From an uncultured Deferribacteres bacterium (lineage in GTDB: Bacteria; Zhuqueibacterota; Zhuqueibacteria; Zhuqueibacterales; Geothermadaptataceae), in assembly GCA_964014485.1 (NCBI GenBank), contig CAXHAT010000095.1, positions 1 to 28,338 on the forward strand: a stretch of 28,338 nucleotides of DNA. Reading direction: 5' to 3'. Both the position numbers and the translations under genes were made by a program. A model generated the notes under the pieces. It had not been told where the DNA came from. It made no database searches and saw only the letters and a program-made list of their open reading frames with translations. Of this stretch, positions 1 to 16,966 are shown piece by piece (the first letter of the stretch is position 1; the number at the start of each line of letters is the position of its first letter).

Positions 1-44
1 CACCAAGAAGCTCGTCGGCAGCGTCAGATGTGTATAAGAGACAG
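1..44 (+). other. Untrimmed Illumina Nextera i5/Read 1 adapter (sequencing artefact)
   Basis: 12-44 is exactly TCGTCGGCAGCGTC-AGATGTGTATAAGAGACAG (Tn5 mosaic end at 26-44). It is preceded by CAC (end of P5) and an 8-nt index-like CAAGAAGC. Confidence 0.98.
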
Positions 45-815
45 GTATCGTCGAACACCGTCGAGTCGGCGGGCAGACTGGCAATTTGGACGAAGGCGCC
101 GCTCGTGTCCTGCTTTTCGAGATAAAAACCGTCCTCGTTATCAGCGCCGTCCGTCCATGAAATTTGCAAGGAAAGAAAACCCGTCGGCGTGACCGTAAGA
201 TTTGTCGGCACGACCGGCGGCAACGGCAAATCGGTCTCCGCCGAGTCCGCGTTTGAATAAGGCGAAAGTCCGCCCGCGTTGTAAGCGGCGACGCGGAAAA
301 AGTAGACCGAATTTGGAACCAGGGAACTGTCGCGCCAAGTCGTGACGTTGGCGCCAACGCTGTCGGCGGCTGCAAAAGTTCCCGGCTGCCCGGCGTTCAG
401 CGAATCTTCCGGCGCGCGTTCGATGTGAAAGCCGTCCTCATCGTCCGACAAATCCAGCCAGTTCAAATCGATGGAGCCGCGCCCGGTGGAAGAAGCGATC
501 AGCGTATCCGGCGCGGCGGGCGGAATCGGGGCGCCCGAAGCGACCGCGACCTCGGCGCTGTAATCCGAAATGATCACGCCGTTTTGCGCGCGCAGGCGAT
601 AAATGTAATTGGTGAACGGCAAAAGACCGTTCATGCCATCGTCGAGAAATGAAACGTTCGGCGCGACGGTCGTTCCAACTTCCGCGAAAACGCCGCCGCT
701 TGTTTTTCTCTCCACCAAAAAACTATCCGCGTTGGCCACTGCGTCGTTCCACGAGAGCGAAATGCGCAGACTGTCCTGGGCTTGCGCGAAAACGCTGGCA
801 GGCGCGACCGGGTTG
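45..815 (-). repeat. Fibronectin type III array 4 (2 full units plus 1 truncated, more diverged)
   Basis: ISLSWND...FLVERK...YIYRLRAQN; IDLNWLDLSDDEDGFHIER...YFFRVAAYN; LQISWTDGADNEDGFYLEK cut at the contig end. Confidence 0.82.
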
Positions 816-3800
816 CCGCCGTTCTTGATCACCGTGAACGAATCGAGTTCGACGCCTTCCATTTTGCGGTAAAAGCCGGTCAATTCGTAGCCGTCAAGAT
901 CGATGACCGAAAAGCCGTTGAAAGGCGAATCCTGCTGGAAGGCCATGTTCCAGATTGGCGGCTTGGCGTCGTCGTTCCGCCCGCCTGTTCCAACCGTGAC
1001 GTACATGGTCGCCGCGGTCGTGTCATCCTTGGTGTAATAATTCGGATCGTTCTGAAAAATCGCGCCGTCGCTCATTAAATATGTGCGTTCGTAGCGGTGC
1101 TTGTCGCCGGAAAAAGTCATGTCCACGCCGTTGGCTTCGAGCACGGGCACAAGCTGTGTGGAAATATTTTCTCCGGAAAACTCCGGCGGAAGATGAAAAA
1201 AGGCGAAAATCCACTGCGCGCCGTTGGCTTTGGCGGCGTTGACGTCGTCGGGAATCCATGCCAGCATTTCGTCCCAGTCCGCGCCGCTGGTTGTGCCGTC
1301 GGAAACGTAGAGACAGATGAAATGGGCAAAACCGTAATCAAAGGAATAGTAATTTTCCGTGTTGACCGGATTGTTGGTCGGTAAGTGAAAGAATTCGTAG
1401 TAGCCCTCGCCGTTCGCGCTCTGCATGTCGTGGTTGCCGATGGTCGGCCAGAACACGGTATTGCGCAGCGTCGGTGCGTAGACGTTGAAATATTTCGGTT
1501 CGTAATCGTCGCGCTTGCCGTTGTCGTAAACCACGTCGCCGAGAATCAAGCCAAACTTGGCGCGCGGATTGATCAGCTCAATCTGCGGCGCCGTGTCAAG
1601 CTGAAACTGCGACAAATCGCCCATGTCGCCCATGGCGAAAAAGCGGAAATTTTGCGTTGCGCCGACCGTCGGATGAGTCTCGAAATAATAATTATCCCCT
1701 CCGGCGTATTCTTCCTGCGGCGAGCCGACCGAGTAATAATAGCGCGTATTCGGCGCGAGCCCGCTCAGGCGCACCACGTGCGAATCGCTCGGCGCGGTGT
1801 TGATCGTCGTGGTGAGATTGTTCGGCGCCGGGCCGTACTGGAACACGCCGTTGCTGGAACTGGTCGTGTACCAGGTGACGATGGCTTCCGTATCGGTGAC
1901 GTTCTGCAAGTACGGCGCGATGTAAAGCCCCGCCGGACTGAGCGTCGCTTCGCTGACTTCGGCGGTGTAAGCCGAGTAGCCGCCCGCGTTCGAGGCGCGC
2001 ACGCGATAAGTGTAGGTCGTCGTCGGGTCGAGATTGACGTCGGAATAACTGATGCTGTTGGCGGGCAATGTCGCGATCTCGCTGTACGCCGAAATGCCCT
2101 GTTTTCGCTCGACGTGATAATTCGCTTCGTCGGTCGCGTTGTCGAGCCAGGTCAAATTCAACTGGCTGGCGCTTGGCGCGGTCACTTCGAGCGTGGTCGG
2201 ATCGGCGGGGGGATACGGCAGGGTCGTGTCGCTCGCCTCGTTGCTGTAGTTGGAAACGCCCGCGACGTTGGTCGCGCGCACGCGGTAAATGTAGGTCGTG
2301 CCCGCGATCACCGCCGTGTCGGCGTAGCTTGTCGTATTTGTCGCCAAAACAATGAGTTGCGCAAACGCAGAATCCGCCGGAAGCTTGCGCTCGATTTCAT
2401 AATTCGCTTCGTCGGTCGCGTTGTCGATCCAGGTCAAATCGATCTGGCTGTGGCCGCTTTCCGTCGCGGTCAGCGAAGTCGGCGTGGCGGGCGGATAAGG
2501 CAAAGTCGTGGCGTTCGCTTCATTGCTGAAATCGGAATTGCCGCCGGAATTTGAAGCGAAAACGCGGTAAACGTAATTCGTCTCAGCGGTCAAGCCTGTG
2601 TCGGAAAACGCCGTTGTGTTCGCGGGATTGCTGGCGATTTCCGAAAATGCGCCGGCCCCGGTTTTTCTTTCAACTTTGTACGACGTTTCGTTGTCTGCGT
2701 TATCCGTCCAAGTTAGATCGATTTGGGTCGCGCCATTCTCAGATGCAGTCAACGATGTTGGAGCCGCCGCGGGCCAAGCCAACGTGGTCGCGTTCGCTTC
2801 GTTGCTGTTGGGTGAATCGCCGCCGTCGTTGGTCGCACGCACGCGGTACGTGTAGGTCGCCGCCGCATTCAATCCTGTGTCAGAAAAACTTGTTGCATTC
2901 GCCGCAGCCGTCGCGATTTCGACAAAATTGCCGTCGCCAGTGTGGCGCTCGATTTTGAAGCCGGTCTCATCGTTGGCGTTGTCCGTCCACGCAAGATCGA
3001 TTTGCGTCTGGCCGTTTTCCGTCGCGATTAAAGCGGTCGGCGCCGCTGGCGGGTAAGGCAGAGTCGTCGCGCTGGATTCATTGCTGTTTTGCGAATCGCC
3101 GCCACTGTTGCTCGCGCGCACGCGGTACGTGTAGCCCGTCTCAACCGTCAAGCCCGTGTCGGAAAACGCCGTCGTGTTGGGCGCGAGACTCGCAATTTCC
3201 GTAAACGCGCCCGCCCCGCTTTTGCGCTCAATTTTCAACGCCGTCTCGTTGTCGGCGTTATCCGTCCAACTCAAATCAATCTGCGCATTGCTGATCGCCG
3301 TCGCCGTCAAAGCGGTAGGCGCGACAGGTGGGAACGGCAAAGTCGTGGCCGAAGCTTCGTTGCCGTAGCCGGAATTGCCGCCGTTGTTCGTCGCTTGCAC
3401 GCGGTAGGTGTAAGTCGTCGCCGAGGTCAGGCCCGTGTCGGAAAACGCCGTCGCGTTCGCCGCGACCGCCGCGATTTCGGCGAAATTGCCGTCGCCGTCG
3501 TGGCGTTCGATGGAAAAGCCGTTTTCGTCGTCGGAATTGTCCGTCCAGGCGAGATCAATTTGGGTCTGGCCGTTTTCCGTCGCTGTCAGAGCGCTGGGGG
3601 CGCCGGGCGGATAAGGCAGCGTCGTGCCGGAAGCTTCGTTTGAATAAGCCGAAAAACCGCCCGTGTTGGAGGCGCGCACGCGGTATTCGTGCGTTTCTAA
3701 TTCGCTCAAACCCGTCTGCGACCAGTCCGTCGTGTCCGCACCGACGGTCGCGATTTCCACATAATTGCCGCCGTCCTTTCTTTCAATATGAAAAGTCGTT

Positions 3801-6800
3801 TCGCTGCCGGAATTGTCCGTCCAGTTCAAATCGAGCTCGGTCGCGCTCGCCGCCGTTACGCTCAACCCGGTCGGTGCGGCGGGCGGCAACGGTAAAGTCG
3901 TCGCGCTGGTTTCGCCGGAGTAGCTCGAATGGCCGTCATCGTTGGCCGCGCGGATGCGGTAGGTGTAGCTCGTGTCGTCGCTCAAGCCCGTGTCGCCGTA
4001 ACTTTCCACGCCAGGCCCGGTCGTGGCGATTTCAGCGAATGATCCGCCGCCGGTTTTGCGCTCGATTTTAAAGCCAGTCTCACCGCTTGAATTATCCGTC
4101 CACGTCAAATCAATCTGCGAACTGCTCACTGCCGCCGCCGCTCCTTGGCTCGGCGCACCGAGGGTCGTCGCGGAAGCTTCATTGCTGTAACCCGAAGCGC
4201 CGAAAGCGTTGTTCGCCAAAATTCGGTAAGTATAGCCCGTATTCGCGGCGACGCTATTGTCGCTGTAATTGGTTGCATTCGCGGATAACGTCGCGATTTC
4301 CACAAAAGCGCCCGCGCCGGTTTTGCGCTCGACTTTGTACTCGGATTCGGTGTTGGCGTTGTCCGTCCAGGTCAAATCGATTTGTCCGCTGCTGACCACA
4401 ACCGCAGCCGCACCGCTCGGCGTTGCTGGGGGATCAGGCGGGATGTCCGTCGTCGCCGAAGCTTCCCCGCTGTAGCCGGAATTTCCAGCGTCGTTGCTCG
4501 CGCTGACGCGGTAGGTGTAGGCCGTGTTTGGCGACAGTCCGGAATCATTGAAACTGGTCACATTTTCACCGACGGTCGCGATTTCGACGAACGCGCCTAC
4601 GCCGGTTTTGCGCTGGATGCGGTAGCCGGTTTCGTCTGAATTGTCCGACCAGCTCAAATCGATTTGATCGTAGCCGTTCTCGGTCGCGGTCAGCCCGACG
4701 GGCGTGTTGGGTAGTGGAACGCCGCCGCCGTTGAAAATCTGCACCTCGAAAATCTTGTAGGACGAACTGCTGCGCCCCTGGGTCATGTAAAGTCGTGCGT
4801 AGCGTCCGGTCGCTGGAGCAATGGTAAAATCATCGCTTCCTTCGTCGGCTTTTGTGGTATCGAAAACGGTCGTCCAGTTCACATCGTCGTCGGAGATCTG
4901 GAATTGGTAGACCTCGGCGTAGTTGTCTTCGTTCCAGTCGATCACGACGCGGCTGAAAGTCTGCGGTTGGCCAAAATCAACCTTGAGCCATTCCTCCGCG
5001 ACGTCATCGCTTTTCCAATACGAACCGCCGTCAGCGTCGAATGCAAATTCAGCGAACAAGTCATCGTTGTCGGATGAAGCCGTGTAAGTTTGGTTAAGCG
5101 CAATATTAGCGACAACGGCTTCCGACGTGGTCGCCGAAGCTTCTCCGCTGTAATCGGAAAACAAATCGTTATTGTAGGCGCGCACGCGGTAGGTGTAGGT
5201 CGTTTGCGCGCTCAGGCCGTTGTCCTGAAAGAAAATCTCGTTCGCCGCGACGGTCGCGATTTGGATAAAATTGCCGTCGCCGTCGTGACGCTCGATGTGA
5301 AAGCCGTCCTCGTCGCTGGAATTGTCCGTCCACCAGAGCTCAATTTGCGAACTGCCGGTTGCGCTCGCCGACAAAGCGCCGGGGGCTGTTGGCGGCGGGG
5401 GCGGCGGATCCGTCGTCGCGGCGGCTTCGCTGCTGTAGCCGGAATCGCCGACGTCGTTGCTCGCCTTCACGCGGTAGGTGTAGGTCGTGTTCGGATCAAG
5501 TCCCGTGTCGCTGTAATTTGTGATATTGGCGCCGAGAGAGGCGATCTCCGAAAAATTTCCGTCGCCGCCGTGGCGTTCGATTTTGAAGCTGTTCTCGTTG
5601 TCGGCGTTGTCCGTCCAGCTCAAATCGATCTGAACATGATCGAAAGTCGTCGCCGTCAAACCGCTCGGCGCGGCGGGCGGCGGCGGGGGCGGACCGGTGG
5701 TCGCCGAAGCATCGCTCGTGTAACTCGAATGTCCGAAAGCGTTCGTCGCTTTGACGCGATACGTATAGGTCGTGCTCGCGTTCAAACCCGTGTCATTGTA
5801 AGAAATTTCATTCGCGCCCAGCGATGCGATCTCGACGAAATTGCCGTCTCCTGCGTGGCGCTCGATTTTGAAATTGTCTTCGTCATTCGAATTGTCCGTC
5901 CAGGCCAAATCGATTTGGGTGTGATCGAACGTCGTCGCCGTTAAATCGCTCGGCGCATTTGGCGGCGGCGGCGGCGCGTCGGTGGTCGCGGAAGCTTCGT
6001 TGCTGTAGCCGGAATCGCCAATGTCGTTGGTCGCACGCACGCGGTAAGTGTAGGTCGTCGTGTGATTCAAGCCCGTGCCCGAGAAGCTCGTCACGTTCGC
6101 GCCGACCATCGCGATTTCGGCAAAACTCCCCGCTCCGGTTTTGCGCTCAATTTTGAAGCCGGTCTCGTTGTCGGCGTTGTCCGCCCAGCTTAAATCAATT
6201 TTGGAAGTATCGACCGTCGTCGCCGCCAAAGCCGTCGGTGCGGCGGGCGGAACGGCGGGAACATCGGTGGTCGCGCTCGCTTCGTTGCTGTAGCCGGAAT
6301 TACCGGTCGCGTTGGTCGCGCGCACGCGGTAAGTGTAGGTCGTGCCTGAGTTTAGACCTGTATCGCTAAAACTCGTGACGTTACCGCCGACAGTCGCGAC
6401 TTCCGCGAAAGCGCCTGCGCCGGTCTTGCGTTCGATACTGTAACCGGTCTCATTATTTGCATTGTCCGCCCAACTTAAATCGATCTGAGCATCGCCGTTC
6501 GCGGTCGCCGTCAGCGTCGTCGGCGCGCTCGGCAAAGCGTTGGGATCGCCGCCGTTGCTGTAAACTTCGAATTCATAAAGTTTGTACTTGGTCTCGTTGT
6601 TGATCGTCATCCAGAGACGCACGTACTGCGCGACGACCGGCGGAAAAGCCATTTCATCAGCGCCTTTGTCAAAACGCGTTCCGGTGACCGCGTCCGCCCA
6701 ATTGACGTCGTCGGTCGAGATCTGAACCGCAAATTCCTGGGCATAATTTTTACTGCGCCAATCGATAAAAACGCTGTCAACGACCATCCATTGGCCGAGA

Positions 6801-9800
6801 TCGACCTTGAGCCATTCCGCTTCGCCCGCCGTTGCGTCGTTGCTTTCCCACATGGTTTCCGAATCGCCGTCCGTGCCCATTTCCGGCGCGGAATCACTGT
6901 CCGTGGAAGAAGCCGTCGTCGGTTTGTTCAGCGCCTGGTTGGCGTTCGGGTCGATGGACTCGCTGTCCGTGGTCGCGGACGACTCGTTTGAATAGCCGGA
7001 ATCGCCGTCGCCGTTGGTTGCGCGCACGCGATACGTGTAGGTCGCGGTCGCGCTCAACCCTGTGTCGCTGTAAGAAACCGCGTCCGCCGCAACAGTCGCG
7101 ATTTCAGCGAAATTACCGTCACCGGCGTGGCGCTCAATTTTGAAGCCGGTCTCGTTGTTTGCATTGTCCGTCCAGGCCAGATCAATTTGCTCGGAGCCGT
7201 TTGCCGTCGCCAAAAGCGTCGTCGGCGCGGCGGGCGGATTCGGCGCGGCGTCTGTTGTCGCCGAGGCTTCGTTGGAATTACCCGAATCACCGTCGCCGTT
7301 GGTCGCCCGGACGCGGTAAGTGTAAGTTACGCCTGAATTTAAGCCCGTGTCGTTGTAAGAAACTGAGTTCGTGGCAATGGTTGCGATTTCGGCGAAATTG
7401 CCGTCGCCTGCATGGCGCTCAATTTTGAAGCCGCTTTCGTTATCGGCGTTGTCCGTCCAGGTTAAATCGATTTGGTTTTGACCGTTTGCCGCCGCCGTCA
7501 AACTGCTCGGCGCAGCGGGCGGATTCGGCAGTGCATCGGTGGTTGCGGCAGCTTCATTTGAATAATTTGAGTCGCCGTCATCATTGTTGGCGCGGACGCG
7601 GTAAGTGTAAGTCGTGCTCGCGTCAAGGCCGGAATCGGTGTAAGAAGCCGCGTTGGCGGCAGCGGTTGCAATCTGCGCAAAATTGCCGTCCCCGGCGTGG
7701 CGCTCAATTTTAAAACCGGTCTCGTTGTCGGCGTTGTCTGTCCAGTCCAAATTGACTTGTGAAGTTCCGGCGGAAACCGCGGTCAAACTCGAAGGCGCGG
7801 CGGGCGGATTCGGCAGCGCATCGGTGGTTGCGCCGGCTTCATTTGAAAAATTGGAATCGCCGTCGTCGTTATTCGCGCGGACGCGGTAAGTGTAGCTCGC
7901 GTCCGGATTTAGGCCGGAATCGCTGAATGAATTGGCGTTTGCAGCCGCGGTCGCAATTTGGGCGAAATTGCCGTCGCCTGCATGGCGCTCGATTTTAAAG
8001 CCGGTTTCGTTGTCGGCGTTGTCCGTCCAGTTCAAATTGATTTGTGAAGTTCCGGCGGTCGTCGCGCTTAAGCTGGAAGGCGCGGCGGGCGGATCGAGCG
8101 TGGTCGCCGAAGCTTCGTTGGAAAAATTTGAATCGCCGTCATTGTTCGTCGCGCGGACGCGGTAAGTGTAAGTCACGCCCTGGCTCAGACCGGCGTCGTT
8201 GTAATTCGTCGCGTTCGCGCTCGTCGTCGCGATTTGCGCAAAATTGCCGTCGCCGTCGTGGCGCTCAATTTTGAAGCCGGTTTCGTTGCCGGAATTGTCC
8301 GTCCAGGTTAAATCGATTTGGGTCGTTCCGCTCGTGCTCGCCGCAAGCGTCGTCGGCGCGGCGGGGGGATTCAGCGTGGTCGCGGAACTTTCGTTTGAAA
8401 AATTGGAATCGCCGTTGCCGTTGTAGGCGCGCACGCGATAAGTATAAGTTACGCCTGCGCCCAAGCCTGTGTCGTTGTAGCTAACCGCGTCGGCGGCAAC
8501 GGTTGCGATCTGCGCGAAATTGCCGTCGCCGGAATGGCGTTCGATTTTGAAGCCGTCTTCGTCGAAAGCGTTGTCCGTCCAGGCCAAATCAATTTGATTA
8601 GTCCCGTTCGCCGTCGCCGCAAGCGCCGTTGGCGCGACGGGCGGACCGGTCGTCGTTGCGGAAGATTCGTTTGAGTTGTCGGAATCGCCGTTGCCGTTGT
8701 AGGCGCGCACGCGATAAGTATAAGTTACGCCTGCGCCCAAGCCTGTGTCGTTGTAGCTAACCGCGTCGGCGGTAACGGTTGCGATTTGCGTGAAATTGCC
8801 GTCCCCGGCGTGGCGCTCAATTTTGAAGCCGTCTTCACCGGCAGCGTTGTCCGTCCAGGCAAGATCGATTTGGGATGCGCCGTTGGCCGTCGCGGAAAGC
8901 GCGGTTGGTGCGGCGGGCGGATCGAAGCCGGTTTTGGTCATCGTGAAAGCGTCGATGTCCGTGCCGTCGCTCATGCGGAAAAAAGCGTTCAATGTGCTGC
9001 CGTTGACGTCCACGACGAACAAGCCGTTGAGTTCATCGGGATGCTGGTAAGCCATTTCCGGCGCATCAGGACGGGGATTGTCGCTCTTCCCCCCCGCCCC
9101 GCTGGTGACGTAAATCGTGCCGTCGCCGAACTGATTTTTGGTGTAGCCGGTGGTGTTGCCGTCAATGACAAGACCGTCGTGCATTAAAAACGTGCGTTCA
9201 TAAACGTGCTCGTCGCCGGAAAAAGTCATGTCCACGCCGTGCGTTTCGAGAATCGGCACCAGATTTTCCCAGGCAAAGCTCTTGTGCCACTCAACCGGGT
9301 AGTGAAAGGTCGCGAACAGCCATTTCACCCCGCGCGCTTTGGCGGCTGCAAGATCGGCGTCCAGCCAGTCGAGCATCACGGTCAATTCGGGATCTTCGAC
9401 TGACACTTCGCCGTCAATGCAAGCAAAGTGCGCCGGACCGTAATCGAAAGAATAGTAATTTTCGACGGCGGGCGGGTTGTTGGTCGGCAAATGGAAGAAT
9501 TCAAAATAGGCTTCACCGGCGTTGGTGCCAATATCATGGTTGCCGAGCACGGGCCAGAAAACTGAGTTGCGAATGATGTTCTGGTAAACGTCGAAAAACT
9601 TCGCTTTGTAGTCCTCGCGCTTGCCGTCAACATAAACAACGTCGCCAAGAATGAGCGAAAATTCCGCGCGCGGCGAAAGATTTTCGAGCTGCGTCGCAAC
9701 ATCCGCCTGCTCATCGGAGCCGTTGCCCATGTCGCCCATGGCGATGAATCGAATGCTTTGTGAAGCGCCGGTCACGGGGTGCGTGTCGAAAAAATAGTCC

Positions 9801-10117
9801 GTACCGCCGGCATAAGTTTGGGCGGGCGAGCCGACGCTATAATAATAACGTGTGTTTGGCGTAAGACCGGTAAGCGTGACAACGTGAACCAGATCGTTGG
9901 CCACGTTGATCGTCGAGTCCAGGTTTGCTGAGTCGGTTCCGAACTTAAAAACGCCGTCGGTGGCGGAAACGGTGTACCAGACGATGACGGCTTGCGTGTC
10001 CGAGGTGTTCTGGACGTACGGCCCCATGTCGAGCTGGGCAAAGGACGGTGAAGCCCAAGCGATGACGGCGAGAACGGTAAACCACAGTCGAGACGCAGTG
10101 CGAGGTGCGGTATGCAT
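45..10117 (-). CDS. Giant secreted multidomain protein, 3'-truncated (>3350 aa): signal peptide - PAP-like metallophosphoesterase - 7xFN3 - F5/8C - 5xFN3 - F5/8C - 10xFN3 - second PAP-like metallophosphoesterase - at least 3xFN3
   Basis: ATG at 10117 with GAAGGA RBS upstream; N-terminus MHTAPRTASRLWFTVLAVIAWASPSFA/Q is signal-peptide-like. The same frame was confirmed at 10117, 9217, 1108 and 49. It reads into the adapter without a stop, which explains its absence from the ORF track. Domains were read from manual translation. Confidence 0.93.
822..1920 (-). other. Purple acid phosphatase-like module 2 within the giant CDS
   Basis: APYLQN...HVVRLSGLAPNTRYYYSVG, FFAMGDMG, LGDVVY, WPTIGNHD, YYSFDYG, FAFFHLP, TFSGDKHRYER, MYVTVGTGG; colinear with module 1. 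Confidence 0.9.
1940..4715 (-). repeat. Fibronectin type III tandem array 3 (10 units, ~268-284 bp period)
   Basis: WxDN motifs near 4645, 4361, 4093, 3814, 3538, 3259, 2981, 2701, 2423, 2141. Confidence 0.88.
4735..5110 (-). other. F5/8 type C (discoidin/CBM32-like) domain 2 within the giant CDS
   Basis: NIALNQTYTASS...AFDADGGSYWKS...EWLKVDFG...IDW...QISDDDVNWTTV...GRYARL...IFEVQIF. Confidence 0.88.
5125..6535 (-). repeat. Fibronectin type III tandem array 2 (5 units, ~285 bp period)
   Basis: Same FN3 consensus; W(A/T)DN recurs near 6464, 6178, 5893, 5608, 5325. Confidence 0.9.
6560..6940 (-). other. F5/8 type C (discoidin/CBM32-like) domain 1 within the giant CDS
   Basis: NQALNKPTTASS...TDGDSETMWES...EWLKVDLG...IDW...QISTDDVNW...AQYVRL...LYEFEVY. 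Confidence 0.88.
6970..8920 (-). repeat. Fibronectin type III tandem array 1 (7 units, ~276-286 bp period)
   Basis: Repeating PAAPTxLxAxxxxxxQIDLxWTDNxxxExGFKIER...YxYRVRAxNxxGDSxxSNExxATT; WTD codons recur near 8850, 8573, 8296, 8020, 7736, 7451, 7165. Confidence 0.9.
8930..10024 (-). other. Purple acid phosphatase-like module 1 (N-terminal FN3-like subdomain plus calcineurin-like metallophosphoesterase) within the giant CDS
   Basis: GPYVQN...HVVTLTGLTPNTRYYYSVG, then FIAMGDMG, LGDVVY, WPVLGNHD, YYSFDYG, FATFHYP, TFSGDEHVYER, IYVTSGAGG. Confidence 0.9.
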
Positions 10118-10268
10118 TTTGTTGATTTTCCTTCGTTTAACGGATGTTTGATGCAAGATCAAAACGTACCGGTTTCACAGCATCCGGGACGAAGCTCACT
10201 TTTGGCGTTGTCGAATTGTTTAGGCGAATAATCGAAGCTCTGCGAGAGGCGAATTGGGGGGCGGTGAG

Positions 10269-10361: not shown

Positions 10362-10624
10362 AAAAACAGAGCGCCGTTCCAAATATCGCCTTTTGTGCGA
10401 AACTGCCGCACTCCGTCCGTGGAAGGAAAACGCGAGAATCCGTTCTCGCAATCAGATGATGAATTACGTGCTTCGAGACGAGTTTGCGAACGACTAAAGA
10501 TTGGGATGCGACGAAATTCTTATTCAAAGATAAGCCGCTTGCATTTTCCGAGGCGGCATTGAACATTACTCGCGCCGCTTGGTCTTTTGCTGGAAAATTC
10601 AGCACTCCTTTTTATTTTAAAGCT

Positions 10625-11875
10625 ATGCTTAAAAATTATACAAACCGCATCTTTTGTCTTATCGCTTTTTTCGCGTTTGCGGCGGAGAGTTCAGCGCGCA
10701 TTTTGGAAGATTGGCCGCAGTGGCTTGGAACGAATCGCGATGGGCGTTCCGTTGAAACCGGATTATTGAAATCCTGGCCAAGCGGCGGGCCCCAAGAACT
10801 TTGGCGCAAATCAATCGGCGAGGGATTTTCGGGAATCGCGGTCGTTGGAGACCGCGCATTTACCATGGTTGCGCGCGACGGCGATGAATTTGCGATTTGT
10901 CTCAACGCTTCAAACGGCGAAGAGACCTGGAAAACGCGCACAGGTAAAAACTTCCGCATAAGTTGGGGCAACGGCCCGCGCGCCACGCCGGTCGTTGACG
11001 GAAACGTTGTTTATGTCGCGGGCGCCAACGCGAGCCTTTTTGCACTGGCGGCAAATTCCGGTGAAATTCTTTGGAAAAAAGACCTGCGGCAGGAACTGGG
11101 CGGGACTATGCCGGATTTGGGTTACTCAAACTCTCCTCTCATCGTCGACGATCTCTTGCTGATTCCCGTAGGCGGCGGCAGCGGGCGCGGCGTTTACGCC
11201 TTTAATAAAACGACCGGCGAGGTTGTCTGGAAAACGCATACGGATCATCCCGGCTATTCGTCGCCGGTACTCGCAACGATTCACGGCGTGCGGCAGGCGG
11301 TGTTTTTTACCGGGAACAAGATTGTCTCGGTCGCGCCTGCGTCCGGGGAAACGCTCTGGCAATTTTCCTGGCGAGCCATCGGCTACGAAGCCGAGAATGT
11401 CGCCACGCCGGTCTTCGTCTCGTCGAACGAAATTTTCTTTTCTTCCGCTCATGCAGCGACTGACAAAGGCGCGGGCGTTTTGCGCATCTCAAAAAACGGC
11501 GATCGCTTTGAAGCAAAACCCGCCTGGCAAAGCAACGTGATGAAAAACCATTTTTCGACTTCGGTTTTCCACGACGGCTTTATTTACGGCACGGACAAGT
11601 CAATTTTGAAGTGCATCGATTCACAAACCGGCGAGGAGAAATGGCGCACGCGCGGCTACGGCGAAGGCTCGCTCATTTTCGCGGACGGCCATTTGTATAT
11701 CATGGGAACTCGTGGCAAACTTGGACTCGTAGAAGCAACCTCGAGCAACTATCGCGAAAAGTCGTCGTTTCAAGCGGTGCGCGGCAAATCCTACACGCCC
11801 CCGTCGATTGCAAACGGCAGGATTTATGTCCGGAGTCAGGGAGAGATGGCTTGTTTTCTTATTGTAGAAGATTAG
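10625..11875 (+). CDS. PQQ-binding-like (BamB-family) beta-propeller protein, secreted
   Basis: Signal peptide after ATG 10625; DWPQWLGTNRDG, GPRATP, YSSP, repeated GExxW blades, YTPPSIANGRIYVR. Start moved from TTG 10484 of the ORF track. Confidence 0.9.
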   Translation: MLKNYTNRIFCLIAFFAFAAESSARILEDWPQWLGTNRDGRSVETGLLKSWPSGGPQELWRKSIGEGFSGIAVVGDRAFTMVARDGDEFAICLNASNGEETWKTRTGKNFRISWGNGPRATPVVDGNVVYVAGANASLFALAANSGEILWKKDLRQELGGTMPDLGYSNSPLIVDDLLLIPVGGGSGRGVYAFNKTTGEVVWKTHTDHPGYSSPVLATIHGVRQAVFFTGNKIVSVAPASGETLWQFSWRAIGYEAENVATPVFVSSNEIFFSSAHAATDKGAGVLRISKNGDRFEAKPAWQSNVMKNHFSTSVFHDGFIYGTDKSILKCIDSQTGEEKWRTRGYGEGSLIFADGHLYIMGTRGKLGLVEATSSNYREKSSFQAVRGKSYTPPSIANGRIYVRSQGEMACFLIVED

Positions 11876-11954
11876 GCCGAAGGTTTTAGGATGTTAGCAT
11901 CTGTTGGACTGTTCTCTACAATGCTCGACAAAAGCGTTCGAGCAGAATTTTTCT

Positions 11955-11995
11955 AAACGCAGAGACGGAATGGACACTGAGAAGCGCAGAGAAAA
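11955..11995. repeat. ACGCAGAG-type intergenic repeat unit
   Basis: AAACGCAGAGAC...GAAGCGCAGAGAAAA, related to copies at 13241-13287 and 21487-21640. Confidence 0.55.
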
Positions 11996-12104
11996 TTAAA
12001 TTGTAACTGATGTTACGCGCCAGCTTCATAATACAGCAGCATTTTATCAAAGTCATTCGGCGGCGCCGCCCTACCGCCAACCTAATTTCGAGACGCCCAA
12101 AATT

Positions 12105-12228
12105 CTCGTTCCCAATCTCGGGATTGGGAACGCAATTGCACTCGAAACTCCAGTTTCGAGTGAATACTTTGGCTCGAAACTGGAGTTTCGCGCCCATTTT
12201 CATTCCCAAACCGGAGTTTGGGAACGAG
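12105..12228. repeat. REP/MITE-like four-hairpin palindromic element
   Basis: Terminal CTCGTTCCCAA...TTGGGAACGAG inverted repeats; inner CGAAACTCCAGTTTCG / CGAAACTGGAGTTTCG hairpins. Confidence 0.85.
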
Positions 12229-12233
12229 CCGTA

Positions 12234-12404
12234 AACTCGTGGCAAACTTGGACTCGTTGAAGCAACCTCGAGCAACTATCGCGAAAAGTCGTCGTTTCAA
12301 ACGGTGCGCGGCAAATCCTACACGCCCCCTTCGATTGCAAACGGCAGGATTTATGTCCGGAGTCAGGGCGAGATGGCTTGTTTTCTTATTAAAGGCGATT
12401 AGGC
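12234..12404 (+). pseudogene. Orphan copy of the 3' end of the upstream beta-propeller gene (11707-11877)
   Basis: 157 bp with 4 mismatches at offset 527, then a diverged hexamer and shared GATTAGGC including the stop. Translates as TRGKLGLVEATSSNYREKSSFQTVRGKSYTPPSIANGRIYVRSQGEMACFLIKGD* with no start. Confidence 0.88.
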
Positions 12405-12620
12405 TGCAGGCTGATCGTAGCAAAATTCAGGTGGAATCTGAAGCGCAGTTTATTTTAAAAAGCCGTCCGAAATGTCATTCAGGAGGAATCTATTTTGCAC
12501 ACGGCGAACGAACGAACCTTTTTGCTGAAGATTCCGCGAGGCGTTTGACGCCCTTTTATTGCGCATGAAATGTGCGAAAAGTTATACTTCGATTGAATAA
12601 ATTCTCAGGAGCGCAAAACT

Positions 12621-13208
12621 ATGGCAGCAAGAAACGTCAAAACCGCCGTCAAATTGATTGAAGAAGCATGGGCTAAACGCTGGGAAACGATGAAATCGCC
12701 GCCAGATTCGAAAGAAGAATTGCAACGAAACGTCGATGAAGTGCATCAGAATCTTGTCGAGGCGGTTGCAATTTGCCGCGAGACCGGAGCGAAGCGCGAG
12801 TTGGTTCATGCGCTCAGAAAACTCGGTCACGTCGAGCAAGCCGCGGGGCGAGAAGAAGCAGCCCGGGCTTTGTATGAAGAAGCCGTCGCCGTCAGTCGCC
12901 AGCAAGAAGATTCGCTGCTATTGGCGCATTCGGTCAGACATTTGGGAGACGTTTATCGGGAAGCTGGCAAGGCGGCCGAGGCCGAAGCCAATTATAATGA
13001 AGCTTTGGCGCTCTATCGCAAGCACGGGCAGCCGCCTGCGCTCGATTTTGCCAATACGATCCGGCCGATGGCGATCTTGAAAGAAGAGGCGGCAATGATC
13101 GAGGAAGCCAAGAATCTGTGGCGAGAAGCGCGGGATTTATACGAACAAGTCGGCATTGAGGAAGGCGTTAAAGAATGCTCGGATCATTTGGCGCAATTGA
13201 GCAAGTAA
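12621..13208 (+). CDS. Tetratricopeptide repeat protein
   Basis: AGGAG RBS; helical repeats ALRKLGHV...A...YEEAV and SVRHLGDVY...AEAEANYNEALALYR. Confidence 0.85.
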   Translation: MAARNVKTAVKLIEEAWAKRWETMKSPPDSKEELQRNVDEVHQNLVEAVAICRETGAKRELVHALRKLGHVEQAAGREEAARALYEEAVAVSRQQEDSLLLAHSVRHLGDVYREAGKAAEAEANYNEALALYRKHGQPPALDFANTIRPMAILKEEAAMIEEAKNLWREARDLYEQVGIEEGVKECSDHLAQLSK

Positions 13209-13215
13209 CAACAAC

Positions 13216-13352
13216 GGAGTGCAAGGCTTGCCTTGCATTTTTGCAAAACTCCGCGAAGCTCTCCGAACTTTGCGTCTCTGCGTTAAGTTACGAGGTTGAA
13301 TGACCGCACTTAATTTGTTCCGGCTTGAAAGGCAAAGCAAGCTTTGCACTCC
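13216..13352. repeat. GGAGTGC...GCACTCC inverted-repeat element (copy 1) with an internal ACGCAGAG-type repeat
   Basis: GGAGTGCAAGGCTTGCCTTGC ... GCAAAGCAAGCTTTGCACTCC; inner 13241-13287 is nearly the reverse complement of 21487-21532. Confidence 0.82.
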
Positions 13353-13406
13353 TTTTTCATGCCGTCGTTAGCAATTGAACCAAACCAAATCTCACTGAGG
13401 ATAATT

Positions 13407-14627
13407 ATGCGATTGACAACAATATTTTTCATAGGACTTTTGTCACTGCCCGCCTTTGCCGCTGAAAAAAACGCTGACTGGCCGCAGTGGCGCGGGCCAA
13501 ATCGTGACGGCGTTTCGCAAGAAAGCGGATTGTTGAAAAAATGGCCGGAAAACGGGCCGAAACAACTCTGGCGCGTTTCAACCGGCAAAGGCTTCTCCAG
13601 CGTCGTCGTTGCCGGCGGGAAGGTTTACGGCGCATGGGCCAAAGGCAATTATGAAGAATTGATTTGTCTGGACGAAAAGAGCGGCGAACAACTGTGGAAA
13701 CATCGTCTCGGAACCGTTTTTGTCAACGAAATGGGAAGCGGCCCGCGTTCTTCGCCGATTGTCGACGACGGCTTGGTTTATGCTATTGGCGCACGCGGGA
13801 ACCTTCACGCCGTTGACGCGAAAAGCGGAGAAAAAGCCTGGAGCCGAAACTTAACGCGCGAATACGGCACGCGCATTCCGCGTTGGGGCTATTCTTCATC
13901 GCCGTTGGTTGAAGGCAATTTATTGTTGGTTGAATTGGGCGGCAAACGCGGTTACGCTTTCGCCGCTTTCGACAAAAAAACGGGCAACATTGTCTGGCAT
14001 TCAGAAAGCGATCAGCCCGGTTATTCATCGCCGATCGTCATCACAATGCACGGGAAAAAGCAGGTCGTTTTTTTTAGCGCTTACGGCCTGCAAGCCTTGT
14101 CGCTGGACGACGGCAAACTGCTCTGGAAACATTCCTGGGACACAAACTACAATGTCAACGCCGCCATTCCGCTTTTTTATCCGCCAAACAATATTTTGAT
14201 TTCTTCATCTTATGGGGTTGGCGCGGCACTGGTCGAAGTCAACAAAAGCGGCGGGAGATTCGAAACGAAACAGGCGTGGTTTACCAAACGTTTCAAGAAT
14301 CACTTCAATTCTTCCGTTCTGATCGGCGACTATGTCTACGGCTTTGATAATGCAATTTTGAAGTGCCTTGACGTGCGCACGGGCGAAGAAAAATGGAAGG
14401 CGCGCGGCTTCAGCAAAGGTTCGCTCATCGCCGCCGACGGCAAATTGATCGTGCTTGGCGAACAGGGCAGGCTGGCGCTGGTTGAAGCGACGCCCGACGA
14501 GTATCAGGAAATCTCCAGTTTTCAACCTTTGAGCGGAAAATGCTGGTCGTCGCCTTCGCTGGCGAACGGCAGACTTTACGTTCTCAATGAAAAAGAGCTT
14601 ATCTCGTTCGATATTCGCTCGAAATAA
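13407..14627 (+). CDS. PQQ-binding-like (BamB-family) beta-propeller protein, secreted; paralog of 10625-11875
   Basis: GAGGA RBS before ATG 13407; signal peptide ending AFA; DWPQWRGPNRDG, GPRSSP, GYSSSP, KNHFNSSV, WSSPSLANGRLYV. Confidence 0.9.
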   Translation: MRLTTIFFIGLLSLPAFAAEKNADWPQWRGPNRDGVSQESGLLKKWPENGPKQLWRVSTGKGFSSVVVAGGKVYGAWAKGNYEELICLDEKSGEQLWKHRLGTVFVNEMGSGPRSSPIVDDGLVYAIGARGNLHAVDAKSGEKAWSRNLTREYGTRIPRWGYSSSPLVEGNLLLVELGGKRGYAFAAFDKKTGNIVWHSESDQPGYSSPIVITMHGKKQVVFFSAYGLQALSLDDGKLLWKHSWDTNYNVNAAIPLFYPPNNILISSSYGVGAALVEVNKSGGRFETKQAWFTKRFKNHFNSSVLIGDYVYGFDNAILKCLDVRTGEEKWKARGFSKGSLIAADGKLIVLGEQGRLALVEATPDEYQEISSFQPLSGKCWSSPSLANGRLYVLNEKELISFDIRSK

Positions 14628-14692
14628 AAAATTGCTTTGCTATCGTGCCGCCGCATTTTGGACTGTGACTTACAAATTGATATGTTTCTTTC

Positions 14693-14763
14693 GTCATTCC
14701 CGCGCAGGCGGAAATCTTTTGACTTTGAACAACTTTCTGGGTTCCCGCCTGCGCGGGAATGGC
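14693..14763. repeat. GTCATTCCCGC-type palindromic repeat element
   Basis: GTCATTCCCGCGCAGGCGGAAATC ... GGTTCCCGCCTGCGCGGGAATGGC inverted pair. Confidence 0.85.
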
Positions 14764-14812
14764 AGTTTACAAGAAAAACGATTCCAAAAATTTGTAGGAG
14801 AATACCGGAAAA

Positions 14813-16966
14813 ATGAGTTTAAAAATGAACATAAAAAGCGTCTTTTGCACGCTGTTGATTTTAATGATTCCTTCACTAGCGGCGGCGCAAGAAGAGCCGA
14901 TCACGTTTTATGATCACACCGACACGCTCGTTGTTGAGGCGGATCGCGTGATTCAATTACCGACTTACAGCACGATTGCCTCCAAGCTGCCAATTGAATT
15001 GCGAAACACCCCCGCAAGCATCGGCGTCGTCCCGCAATCGCTGTTCATCAACCAGGCAAGTTTCATTTTGAGCGACGCATTGAGCAACGTCAGCGGCGTA
15101 AATATTCAGTCCAATTTTGGCGTGCATGATTTCTTTCTGATTCGCGGATTCAGTTCTGTCGACAACGGCATGGTGATGACGGACGGCGCGATTGAGCCGG
15201 AAGCAATGTATTACCATCTTTACAATATTGAGCGCGTTGAGGTGCTCAAAGGCCCGGCGGCGTTTCTTTACGGCGGCAATCCGATTTCAGGCGTGGTCAA
15301 CCTGACGCGCAAACAGCCGATTTTCACCAATTTTCTCAAAGCCAACGGCTCGTTCGGGCATTTCAATACGATGCGCGGCTCCGTCGATCTTGGCTTGGGC
15401 GACCTCGAATCCGGCTTTGCTTTTCGTCTGAACGGTTTGGCAATGGATTCTGAAAATTATCGCGACGGCACCGACAACCGCAGGCTGGCGATCAATCCTT
15501 CGCTCACTTGGTTGATCAACGACAATACGTCGCTGACGGCCAACATTGAGGTCGTTGACAACGATTACGCTCCGGATTCCGGCGTGCCTTTGATGCGCAT
15601 CAGCCTGGAAGGCCCGCCGATTGTGCCGGATATTCCGCGCACGCGCTCTTACCAATTGCCCGTCGACCGCTCCGACCAAAACGCGCTGCGCTCTCGCGTC
15701 GATTTTTATTCTGAATTGAACGAAACGGTCACGGTTCGCAACAAGTTTTATTACACCGATTTAGACTGGAATTCAGCGGGCACGCTTTTGCTCGGCGTCG
15801 CTCCGGACATTGAAGGCAATCCGACTGTTTTCCGCACGGTGCAAAGCCTTGACGACCGCCAGAAGTTTCTGGGCAATCAACTGGAGTTTTTGCTTAAAGC
15901 CAACACTGGCTCCGTCAAGCACAATATCGTCGCGGGCTTTGAAGCGCAGCAATACAAGGACGATTTTGATCTGCAAATTGCACAAGTCAATCCGGTTCCG
16001 CTGTTCACTGATTTTCAGGAATCGGTCACGAGCCTGGATCAATTGCAATTCGCGCCGTTTGCTGCCGGAAAAGCCAAGAGTACTGTAATAGCCCCGTACT
16101 TTGTCGATCAAATCACGCTGGCCAAGCAGGCGCAGCTTTTCATCGGCGGGCGCTACGACGTGATTGATTACGAAAACAACCGCTCCGATTTCGATTTCAT
16201 GACGTTCATGCCTGTCGCTTCCGTCGACACGCGCGACTACAAAAAATTCAGCCCGATGGCAGGATTGAACATCGCCCCGTCCGAGGATTTTTCGCTCTAT
16301 TTTAGCGCGGGTCAGGCTTTTGCGCCGCCTTCGACTTTGACGCAAGGCGATCCCGAACCGGAGGAAACAACGCAAATCGAAGCTGGCGCGAAAATGCGTT
16401 TTTCCGACGGCAAAGTCCATGCGACATTCGCCGTGTATAATTTGGAAAAGAAGAATATCGGCATTCCCGACCAAACCGGCGTTTTGCAGCAGACGGGCGA
16501 TCAACGTTCACGCGGACTTGAATTTGAATTGCGCGCGCTGCCGGCGGAAAAGCTTTTTACTTCGTTTTCCTACGCCTACACCGACGCCGAACTCACCAAC
16601 TTTACCGAGTTCATCCAAATCAGTCAAACGGCTTTCCAGCTCGTCGATTACTCGGACAATAAATCCCCCTTCGCGCCGGATCACATTTTCAATTTTTGGG
16701 CGACAAAAGAATTGCGTAACGGCATTGGCTTTGGCGGCGGTGCGCGCTACGTCAGCGGCCAATTTATCGATGAAGACAACGCCTTTGAAATCGATCCCAC
16801 GCTCACTTTGAACGGCATTTTATTCTTCAATCAGGGCAATTGGCGCTGGACGCTAAACGCCAAGAACATCACCAATCGCAAAACCTTCGTTCGCGGCTTC
16901 AGCAATTCTTCGGTGATTCCGGCCGATCCTTTCACAATTTACGGCGGCGTTGAATTCTCGCTCTAA
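14813..16966 (+). CDS. TonB-dependent receptor (siderophore-receptor-like)
   Basis: Signal peptide, TonB-box-like DTLVVEA, plug motifs TPASIGVV / IRGF / NIERVEVLKGPAAFLYG...GVVNL, NAKNITN near the C-terminus, terminal beta-strand YGGVEFSL. Start may be 14825. Confidence 0.93.
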   Translation: MSLKMNIKSVFCTLLILMIPSLAAAQEEPITFYDHTDTLVVEADRVIQLPTYSTIASKLPIELRNTPASIGVVPQSLFINQASFILSDALSNVSGVNIQSNFGVHDFFLIRGFSSVDNGMVMTDGAIEPEAMYYHLYNIERVEVLKGPAAFLYGGNPISGVVNLTRKQPIFTNFLKANGSFGHFNTMRGSVDLGLGDLESGFAFRLNGLAMDSENYRDGTDNRRLAINPSLTWLINDNTSLTANIEVVDNDYAPDSGVPLMRISLEGPPIVPDIPRTRSYQLPVDRSDQNALRSRVDFYSELNETVTVRNKFYYTDLDWNSAGTLLLGVAPDIEGNPTVFRTVQSLDDRQKFLGNQLEFLLKANTGSVKHNIVAGFEAQQYKDDFDLQIAQVNPVPLFTDFQESVTSLDQLQFAPFAAGKAKSTVIAPYFVDQITLAKQAQLFIGGRYDVIDYENNRSDFDFMTFMPVASVDTRDYKKFSPMAGLNIAPSEDFSLYFSAGQAFAPPSTLTQGDPEPEETTQIEAGAKMRFSDGKVHATFAVYNLEKKNIGIPDQTGVLQQTGDQRSRGLEFELRALPAEKLFTSFSYAYTDAELTNFTEFIQISQTAFQLVDYSDNKSPFAPDHIFNFWATKELRNGIGFGGGARYVSGQFIDEDNAFEIDPTLTLNGILFFNQGNWRWTLNAKNITNRKTFVRGFSNSSVIPADPFTIYGGVEFSL

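Follow-up and report, generated by a model that had tools for sequence, protein, structure and literature searches.

An aspartate in place of the first motif 5 histidine in two purple acid phosphatase-like modules of a giant, putatively secreted protein from an uncultured Deferribacteres bacterium

The window analysed here, the whole 28,338-nucleotide stretch of contig CAXHAT010000095.1 (assembly GCA_964014485.1) from an uncultured Deferribacteres bacterium, encodes a giant protein with two metallophosphatase modules, both of which carry GDxH at the position where purple acid phosphatases (PAPs) have the metal-binding motif GHxH. The minus-strand frame 10162..2 is single and unbroken, comprises at least 3387 residues (3387 codons) and exits the contig end. 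Pfam analysis of the protein gave fn3 in 22 stretches, two matches each to Pur_ac_phosph_N, Metallophos and F5/8 type C, and one to Metallophos_C, with scores of 189.8 bits for PF16656 (2 stretches), 86.2 bits for PF00149 (2 stretches) and 28.6 bits for PF14008. The order of the parts (Table 1) was established by self-phmmer with one Fn3 unit and one discoidin unit as queries. Modules 1 and 2 were found to be 51% identical over 401 aligned positions.

Motif 5 and the family of the two modules

The reverse complement of positions 9206-9217 is GGC GAC GAG CAC, translated as GDEH at residues 316-319 of the frame, and that of 1097-1108 is GGC GAC AAG CAC, translated as GDKH at residues 3019-3022. 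The GDxH motif claimed for both modules in a first-pass annotation was thus read directly from the DNA; its coordinates fit the four-residue motif, whereas the strings quoted alongside them, SGDEHVYER and SGDKHRYER, span 9194-9220 and 1085-1111. The same annotation had described the remaining motifs as PAP-like, and GDMG, GDVVY, GNHD and the motif 4 His (TFHYP in module 1, FFHLP in module 2) are indeed present in both modules, with the His of GNH also intact. Against the seven invariant ligands by which PAPs are recognised (GDXG/GDXXY/GNH[DE]/VXXH/GHXH), each module has six of the seven and departs at motif 5.

The alignment to kidney-bean PAP that had been proposed as a check was carried out. 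A phmmer search of all PDB chains paired 'fsgdehvyer' with 'faghvhayer' of the kidney-bean enzyme (1kbp), and 'atfhyp' of motif 4 with its 'vlmhsp'. Because of this pairing, in which Asp falls on the first His of GHVH, the alignment confirms that Asp occupies the first-His position of GHxH, the divalent-metal (M(II)) ligand. In PAPs the divalent ion is held by "an invariant His2Asp1Asn1 set", so that the M(II) site of PAPs uses His where PhoD uses carboxylates (PMC4223295). By the assignment in PMC7642983, the divalent metal takes the first His of GHEH in Rv2577, and iron takes the second. The Asp codon is GAC in both modules, one base from the CAY of relatives.

Table 1. Features of the giant protein, in order from its N-terminus.
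Feature	Position	Strand	Basis
Giant secreted protein (C-terminus off contig)	2..10117	-	frame 10162..2
Signal-peptide-like N-terminus, residues 16-43, MHTAPRTASRLWFTVLAVIAWASPSFAQ	10034..10117	-	read from the translation
PAP-like module 1, residues 44-411, Pur_ac_phosph_N + Metallophos	8930..10033	-	Pfam, phmmer, AlphaFold2, fold matches
Module 1 GDMG (D144, Fe-site ligand)	9725..9736	-	motif search
Module 1 GDVVY (D174 bridging, Y177 Fe-site Tyr)	9632..9646	-	motif search
Module 1 GNHD (N208, M(II) ligand)	9533..9544	-	motif search
Module 1 motif 4 His H287 and shortened loop TFHYPVEWHKSF, without the conserved Y/G/H/D	9275..9310	-	alignment
Module 1 motif 5 GDEH (D317 for the M(II) His; H319 Fe-site His); GDEHVYER = 9194-9217	9206..9217	-	translation, alignment
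Spacer array: Fn3 x7, discoidin, Fn3 x5, discoidin, Fn3 x10	1937..8929	-	self-phmmer and Pfam
Spacer Fn3 x7	residues 412-1067	-	self-phmmer
First discoidin, residues 1062-1206	6545-6979	-	self-phmmer
Spacer Fn3 x5	residues 1208-1681	-	self-phmmer
Second discoidin, residues 1676-1815	4718-5137	-	self-phmmer
Spacer Fn3 x10	residues 1815-2742	-	self-phmmer
PAP-like module 2, residues 2746-3114	821..1927	-	Pfam, alignment with module 1
Module 2 motif 4 His H2990 and remodelled loop FFHLPPEFSGEN, His-free	1166..1201	-	alignment
Module 2 motif 5 GDKH (D3020, H3022); GDKHRYER = 1085-1108	1097..1108	-	translation
C-terminal Fn3 x3, residues 3115-3379, last one broken by contig end	26..820	-	self-phmmer

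An AlphaFold2 model of module 1, built from an alignment of 74 sequences, had a mean predicted local distance difference test score of 93.7 and a predicted template-modelling (TM) score of 0.91; confidence reached its low point, 88, at module residues 241-260, the site of the remodelled loop described below. Foldseek searches of the PDB with this model placed the plant PAPs 3zk4, 6gja, 1xzw and 1kbp at the top (E 5e-27 to 1e-22; query-normalised TM-scores 0.70-0.78), with PhoD (2yeq) at rank 24 (E 7e-19) and the mammalian PAPs after PhoD. A profile search of PDB sequences gave 3e-46 to 3e-36 for PAPs and 5e-6 for PhoD 2yeq over its N-terminal part only, and plant PAPs were also the best matches in a single-sequence search (E 1e-14). 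The catalytic-domain model of PhoD, PF09423, had no Pfam match in the giant protein, where only the N-terminal model PF16655 was found, overlapping PF16656; NCBIfam held no family model for either module. Compared with a PhoD-type site (DDH[DE] for GNH[DE] together with GDxH), the modules have the GDxH but keep GNHD and the motif 4 His. By sequence and modelled fold, then, both modules are members of the PAP family and not PhoD relatives.

The genome itself provided a PhoD for comparison. The sole PhoD-family protein found in it (L233:412-3009, contig C17; PF09423, 43.7 bits; 865 residues) has a long N-terminal extension and carries TCNND, GDQIY, DDHD and AGDQHLG in order, so that the PhoD motifs given in the annotation hold for this protein (GDQIY/DDHD/GDQH). 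Profile-profile alignment of the PAP-like profile with L233 by hhalign paired TCNND/GDQIY/DDHD with GDxG/GDNAY/GNHD, at a probability of 21% and over the N-terminal half, stopping before motif 5. According to PMC4223295, the calcium ion CaA of PhoD sits where the PAP divalent metal does and has Asp ligands only, Asp-436 bridges Fe and CaA, and D436A abolishes activity. Set beside this, the predicted site of the window modules is PhoD-like in one ligand only. The earlier idea of a PAP/PhoD hybrid does not survive as a statement of descent, as the modules are nested in a clade with canonical GHSH and have plant PAPs as their best fold matches.

Origin, rarity and recurrence of the substitution

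In a maximum-likelihood tree of 73 domains, modules 1 and 2 are sisters (Shimodaira-Hasegawa-like approximate likelihood ratio test, SH-aLRT, 99) within a clade of 24 rows (support 100), every other member of which has GHSH; a 92-row tree agrees (sister support 98, clade support 100). Because the modules are sisters, the trees indicate one H-to-D event that predates the internal duplication, and two separate acquisitions of Asp are ruled out by the same relationship. The Asp has been retained along a path length of about 0.9 substitutions per site.

The Asp is accompanied by a second change, absent from the first-pass annotation and no less relevant to activity. In 72 relatives the motif 4 His opens the pattern H-x-P-P-Y-x-x-G-x-H-x-x-D, in which Tyr and Gly are each present in 70/72, the second His in 66/72 and Asp in 65/72. 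The loop reads HYPVEWHKSF in module 1 and HLPPEFSGEN in module 2; both lack the conserved Y/G/H/D, and each then has a gap of five or more residues when aligned with its closest relatives. By its position, the loop would be the counterpart of the one in plant and mammalian PAPs whose histidines contact phosphate, presumably His295/His296 in the kidney-bean enzyme. When 65 conserved columns were defined (kept in at least 90% of the 72 relatives, start Met excluded), each module kept 56 and missed 9, while among the relatives the median is 1 missed column and the highest number 17. Six misses are common to both modules (Y248E, H253F/N, a deleted Asp, H274D, S275E/K and V310T in module 1 numbering), and these are concentrated in the loop behind motif 4 and in motif 5; all 15 invariant columns of the 74-row alignment are kept in both. 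As judged from the alignment, this pattern is one of localised remodelling and not of general decay. The divalent site as well as the substrate pocket appears to have been altered in this lineage, with the scaffold, the six other ligands and the N-terminal domain conserved. Covariation of the residue that follows the motif 4 His (HHP versus HxP) was considered and rejected, as close GHSH relatives vary there too.

Among the near relatives searched, the substitution on an otherwise intact site was found in the window alone. An exhaustive HMMER search of a representative library of 1.84 billion proteins returned 15,085 hits at E<=1e-3, 1625 of them at E<=1e-30, and the closest library representative (48% identity) has GHSH. 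The best 150 of the 15,085 library hits were pooled with the matches of two word-index protein searches, which gave 285 related domains where both motif 3 and motif 5 were aligned. H-x-H was found in 279 of these; two have Asp first (GDDN and GDGR, both with further motifs degenerate), four differ in other ways, and none of the 285 has GDxH with the other ligands intact. The bacterium's own genome has six more PAP-like modules (on C178, C271, C92, C212, C154 and C199), all GHxH. The search of 40 related genomes gave 20 loci in which motif 5 could be aligned, and every one has GHSH (18/18 without L012 and L030, from a genome, G023, flagged as unpublished). Motif 5 was aligned in 32 of 80 metagenome loci, 26 of which have H-x-H; the remaining six match only distantly or in part, and no PAP-like GDxH was found among these loci. 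A scan of 167 genomes of the phylum with the DNA pattern for V-D-x4-G-D-x-H-x-Y-E-R found the two sites of the window and no others (0/166 other genomes), and the same pattern with His gave 61 matches in 40 genomes (His thus in 61/63), with no matches to reversed-pattern controls. No close GDxH ortholog was therefore found in the best 150 hits of the representative library, the word-index searches, the 40 related genomes, the 80 metagenome loci or the 167 phylum genomes. Some relatives have two modules (P0010, P0015, P0018 and P0051), of which the first is often canonical and the second lacks several ligands (for example GNNAN/GEQE/ASSQ); these pairs look like a catalytic and a pseudo-catalytic module.

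The motif recurs in distant microbes. One genome per prokaryotic species (genome_contigs) was scanned with the back-translated V-D-x4-G-D-x-H-x-Y-E-R, giving at least 119 loci where about 17 chance matches were estimated under uniform base composition. Among the matches listed, 115 have the motif in an open frame and at least 101 fit the PAP-like profile made from the 74-sequence alignment; the 14/115 without a profile match are near the chance expectation. Pfam scanning of 22 GDxH proteins found Pur_ac_phosph_N plus Metallophos in 10, and in one of them, L164, 'vvfsgdahfyer' pairs with 'vvfaghvhayer' of kidney-bean PAP. All eight ligand columns could be aligned in 44 of the matches listed, and 11 of these have the window pattern D, D, Y, N, H, H, D, H. 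The count of GDxHxYER homologs called for in the annotation thus stands at 101 or more PAP-profile proteins, at least 11 with the identical ligand set. These 11 are annotated as belonging to Dehalococcoidia, Chloroflexota, Planctomycetota, Chlamydiota and Natronomonas.

In the 92-row tree, 13 GDxH proteins form a clade made up of GDxH members only (SH-aLRT 92); the tree calls for a minimum of four H/D changes. Forcing the window modules into this clade, which was chosen after inspection of the tree, cost 72.8 log-likelihood units (p-AU 0.0196 in the approximately unbiased, AU, test). The test rejects a single origin, and the window swap appears to have arisen independently of the 13-member clade. 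Recurrence and clade-wide fixation together are the best available evidence that Asp may be a workable ligand at motif 5. NCBIfam had no family above cut-off for ten GDxH proteins, and the literature searches found no GDxH PAP-like subfamily, the terms 'purple acid phosphatase' and 'GDXH' co-occurring in papers on human CPPED1 and the Plasmodium phosphatome. No solved structure, curated family or openly accessible paper was found that would make the variant an already characterised subfamily. The GDxH PAP-like variant is thus real, derived, recurrent elsewhere and, as far as the searches reach, unstudied.

Two further groups of GDxH proteins depart from the canonical site in more than one ligand. 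In L147:457-2619, from a gammaproteobacterial metagenome-assembled genome (MAG), both M(II) histidines are replaced (motif 4 WQNPP with Gln, motif 5 GDSHAYER), and the protein falls inside a GHSHSYER clade of the 92-row tree. Among the matches listed, ten proteins from Nitrososphaeraceae MAGs (L113, L116, L130, L132, L161, L174, L178, L181, L184 and L187) have GDHD, no motif 4 His and GDNHNYER; these metallophosphoesterases are fused to F5/8 type C domains and have a nearly all-carboxylate second site on a PAP-like scaffold.

The remainder of the protein and its neighbours

The listed open reading frame starts with TTG at 10162, and an ATG lies 15 codons downstream at 10117-10115 (residue 16). 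The ATG is the more probable start codon because the signal-peptide-like stretch comes after M16. Positions 1-44 of the window are adapter-like, resembling a Nextera transposase adapter, and the contig lacks the genuine C-terminus of the protein. Because the contig opens on this adapter-like sequence, the final residues of the frame (…CLLYTSDAADELLG) are probably an artefact. Giant frames of 1280-3408 residues with very similar Fn3 repeats were seen on contigs C30, C66, C100, C159, C183 and C212 of the same genome, which points to an extensive family of surface proteins rich in repeats, and two paralogs in this genome (P0011 and P0152) bear a Por_Secre_tail domain.

The divergent and upstream genes encode two PQQ-type beta-propeller proteins, a TPR protein, a TonB-dependent receptor, a sodium:solute symporter, proteins with a C-terminal domain of the type IX secretion system type and a sulfatase; the first four form a divergently transcribed cluster at 10484-16966. 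No pst or pho genes, nor other hints of a phosphate regulon, were found in this neighbourhood, and the context is uninformative on function.

Readings of the altered site and comparison with known systems

We give an even chance to the reading that each module is an active binuclear phosphoesterase of the PAP family in which the M(II) site is altered and the pocket opened. In such a scheme the H-to-D change would have occurred once, in the ancestor of the modules and before the duplication, together with the shortening and rewriting of the loop. The Fe(III) site is predicted to be unchanged (D144, D174, Y177 and H319 in module 1; D2846, D2876, Y2879 and H3022 in module 2), while the M(II) site would become Asp2-Asn-His (D174, N208, H287 and D317; D2876, N2910, H2990 and D3020). 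Two metals would still be bound, and phosphoesters would be hydrolysed via a metal-bridged hydroxide. Being harder and more anionic, the M(II) site would favour Mn, Fe, Mg or Ca over Zn, and an open pocket without the phosphate-contacting His might admit larger esters or diesters, probably with a shifted pH profile. The modules would be displayed twice on a giant secreted protein rich in Fn3 and discoidin domains. Altered metal use and a shifted pH optimum had been proposed from the outset, as had an Fe(III)-tyrosinate colour; we infer that all three may apply, and the GDVVY tyrosine from which the colour was predicted is present.

Several points weigh against this reading. In Rv2577, which is the closest bacterial PAP-like enzyme with a characterisation, Ala at any of the seven active-site residues, including H385 (the first His of its GHEH), abolished activity according to PMC7642983, and the first-His position of motif 5 is therefore essential there. 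The loss of Tyr and His from the loop could mean strongly reduced catalysis. Retention of Asp in both modules, from which selection had been argued, amounts by the trees to one event followed by duplication (SH-aLRT 98-99) and is weak evidence of selection; that argument now leans on the recurrence elsewhere, which is stronger. The clade used in the AU test was picked with the tree in hand.

The same observations feed an explanation that we consider unlikely but by no means negligible, namely that the modules are pseudo-enzymes that keep the PAP fold, and perhaps the metals, have lost efficient catalysis and bind phosphate esters or anionic polymers on a giant adhesin. It draws on the inactivity of the Rv2577 Ala mutant (PMC7642983), on the disappearance of the Y/G/H/D loop from both modules, that of module 2 being His-free, on the 9/65 conserved columns missed per module against a median of 1 in relatives, and on the clearly degenerate second module often seen in the multi-module relatives P0010, P0015, P0018 and P0051. 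Those degenerate modules, however, drop several ligands together, unlike the window modules, where six of seven ligands, the GNH His and 15 invariant columns have been kept over about 0.9 substitutions per site; moreover, a swap fixed in a 13-member clade and in at least 11 proteins with otherwise intact sites would be hard to explain if it were inactivating.

Asp and His are both common divalent-metal ligands, and the swap might also be near-neutral, with metal, pH and substrate unchanged and the modules acting like their GHSH paralogs. Its recurrence in several lineages and the presence in the same genome of a canonical nearest paralog (C178, 46% identical) would fit such an exchange, yet His in 279/285 related domains and in 61/63 phylum pattern matches speaks of strong constraint, and in this lineage the swap came with loop remodelling and an adjacent S-to-E/K change; we regard near-neutrality as distinctly improbable. 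An apparent Asp produced by a sequencing, assembly or frame error has next to no likelihood. The adapter-like beginning of the contig indicates that the assembly is not perfectly clean, but the same GAC codon occurs about 8.1 kb apart in one uninterrupted 3387-codon frame, and because modules only 51% identical both carry Asp with this codon, sequencing noise and chance are ruled out.

A wider idea, which we put forward tentatively and think rather doubtful, is that the window modules represent one of several independent steps from the His2-Asp-Asn site of PAPs toward a PhoD-like all-carboxylate site. The sequences can be arranged in a graded series, from the canonical GNHD/His/GHxH through GNHD/His/GDxH (the window and at least 11 others) and GNHD/Gln/GDxH (L147) to GDHD/no His/GDxH (Nitrososphaeraceae). 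If the idea were true, PAP-like Zn/Fe/Mn acid phosphatases would have been retuned repeatedly into Ca- or Mg-dependent neutral or alkaline phosphoesterases, and PhoD-type chemistry would be a convergent end-point and not the product of a single ancient split.

PAPs are defined by seven invariant ligands, and a recurrent natural His-to-Asp change offers material on how ligands control metal selectivity and pH optimum and bears on how PAP and PhoD chemistries relate. GDxH enzymes would escape surveys of phosphorus-cycling genes that work from motifs and search for GHXH (an example is the motif table of PMC12406696). In the organism, which has at least seven PAP-like proteins that are secreted or on the surface, one may have been specialised, twice in one polypeptide.

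Among known systems, the plant PAPs (kidney-bean 1kbp, sweet potato 1xzw, lupin PPD1 3zk4 and wheat phytase 6gja) share with the modules an N-terminal Fn3-like domain joined to a metallophosphatase fold, as well as GDxG, GDxxY, GNH[DE], the motif 4 His and the second His of motif 5. Unlike them, the modules have Asp for the first His of GHxH and a shortened post-motif-4 loop without Tyr/His, and are embedded twice in a giant Fn3 array. M. tuberculosis Rv2577 (MmpE) is likewise a secreted or cell-wall bacterial enzyme with PF16656 and PF00149, described as PAP-like with monoesterase and diesterase activity (PMC7642983); it differs in its canonical GH385EH387, its single module and its ordinary size. 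B. subtilis PhoD (PF09423) has a related fold, a tyrosinate-ligated Fe(III) and a carboxylate at the position of the PAP M(II) His, but the window has GNHD where the own-genome L233 has DDHD, and Asp where L233 has Cys, and by phylogeny its modules appear to be derived PAP-like proteins. There is no hint in the modules of the third metal of PhoD (CaB, with ligands of the Asn271/Asn272 type).

An identical ligand pattern, GDxHxYER and a matching Pfam architecture are seen in the GDxH clade (L120 from Dehalococcoidia; L164 and L150 from Planctomycetota; L190, L122 and L145 from Chloroflexota; L163 from Chlamydiota; L171 from Natronomonas), which differs in its apparently separate origin and in that several members retain the PPY..G.H loop lost from the window modules. 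The paralog C178 of the same genome (503 residues), a member of the 24-row clade, has GDMG, GDIVY and GNHD and is 46% identical to module 1. In contrast to the window modules, it has GHSHVLER and an intact loop, HHAPYSEGTH.

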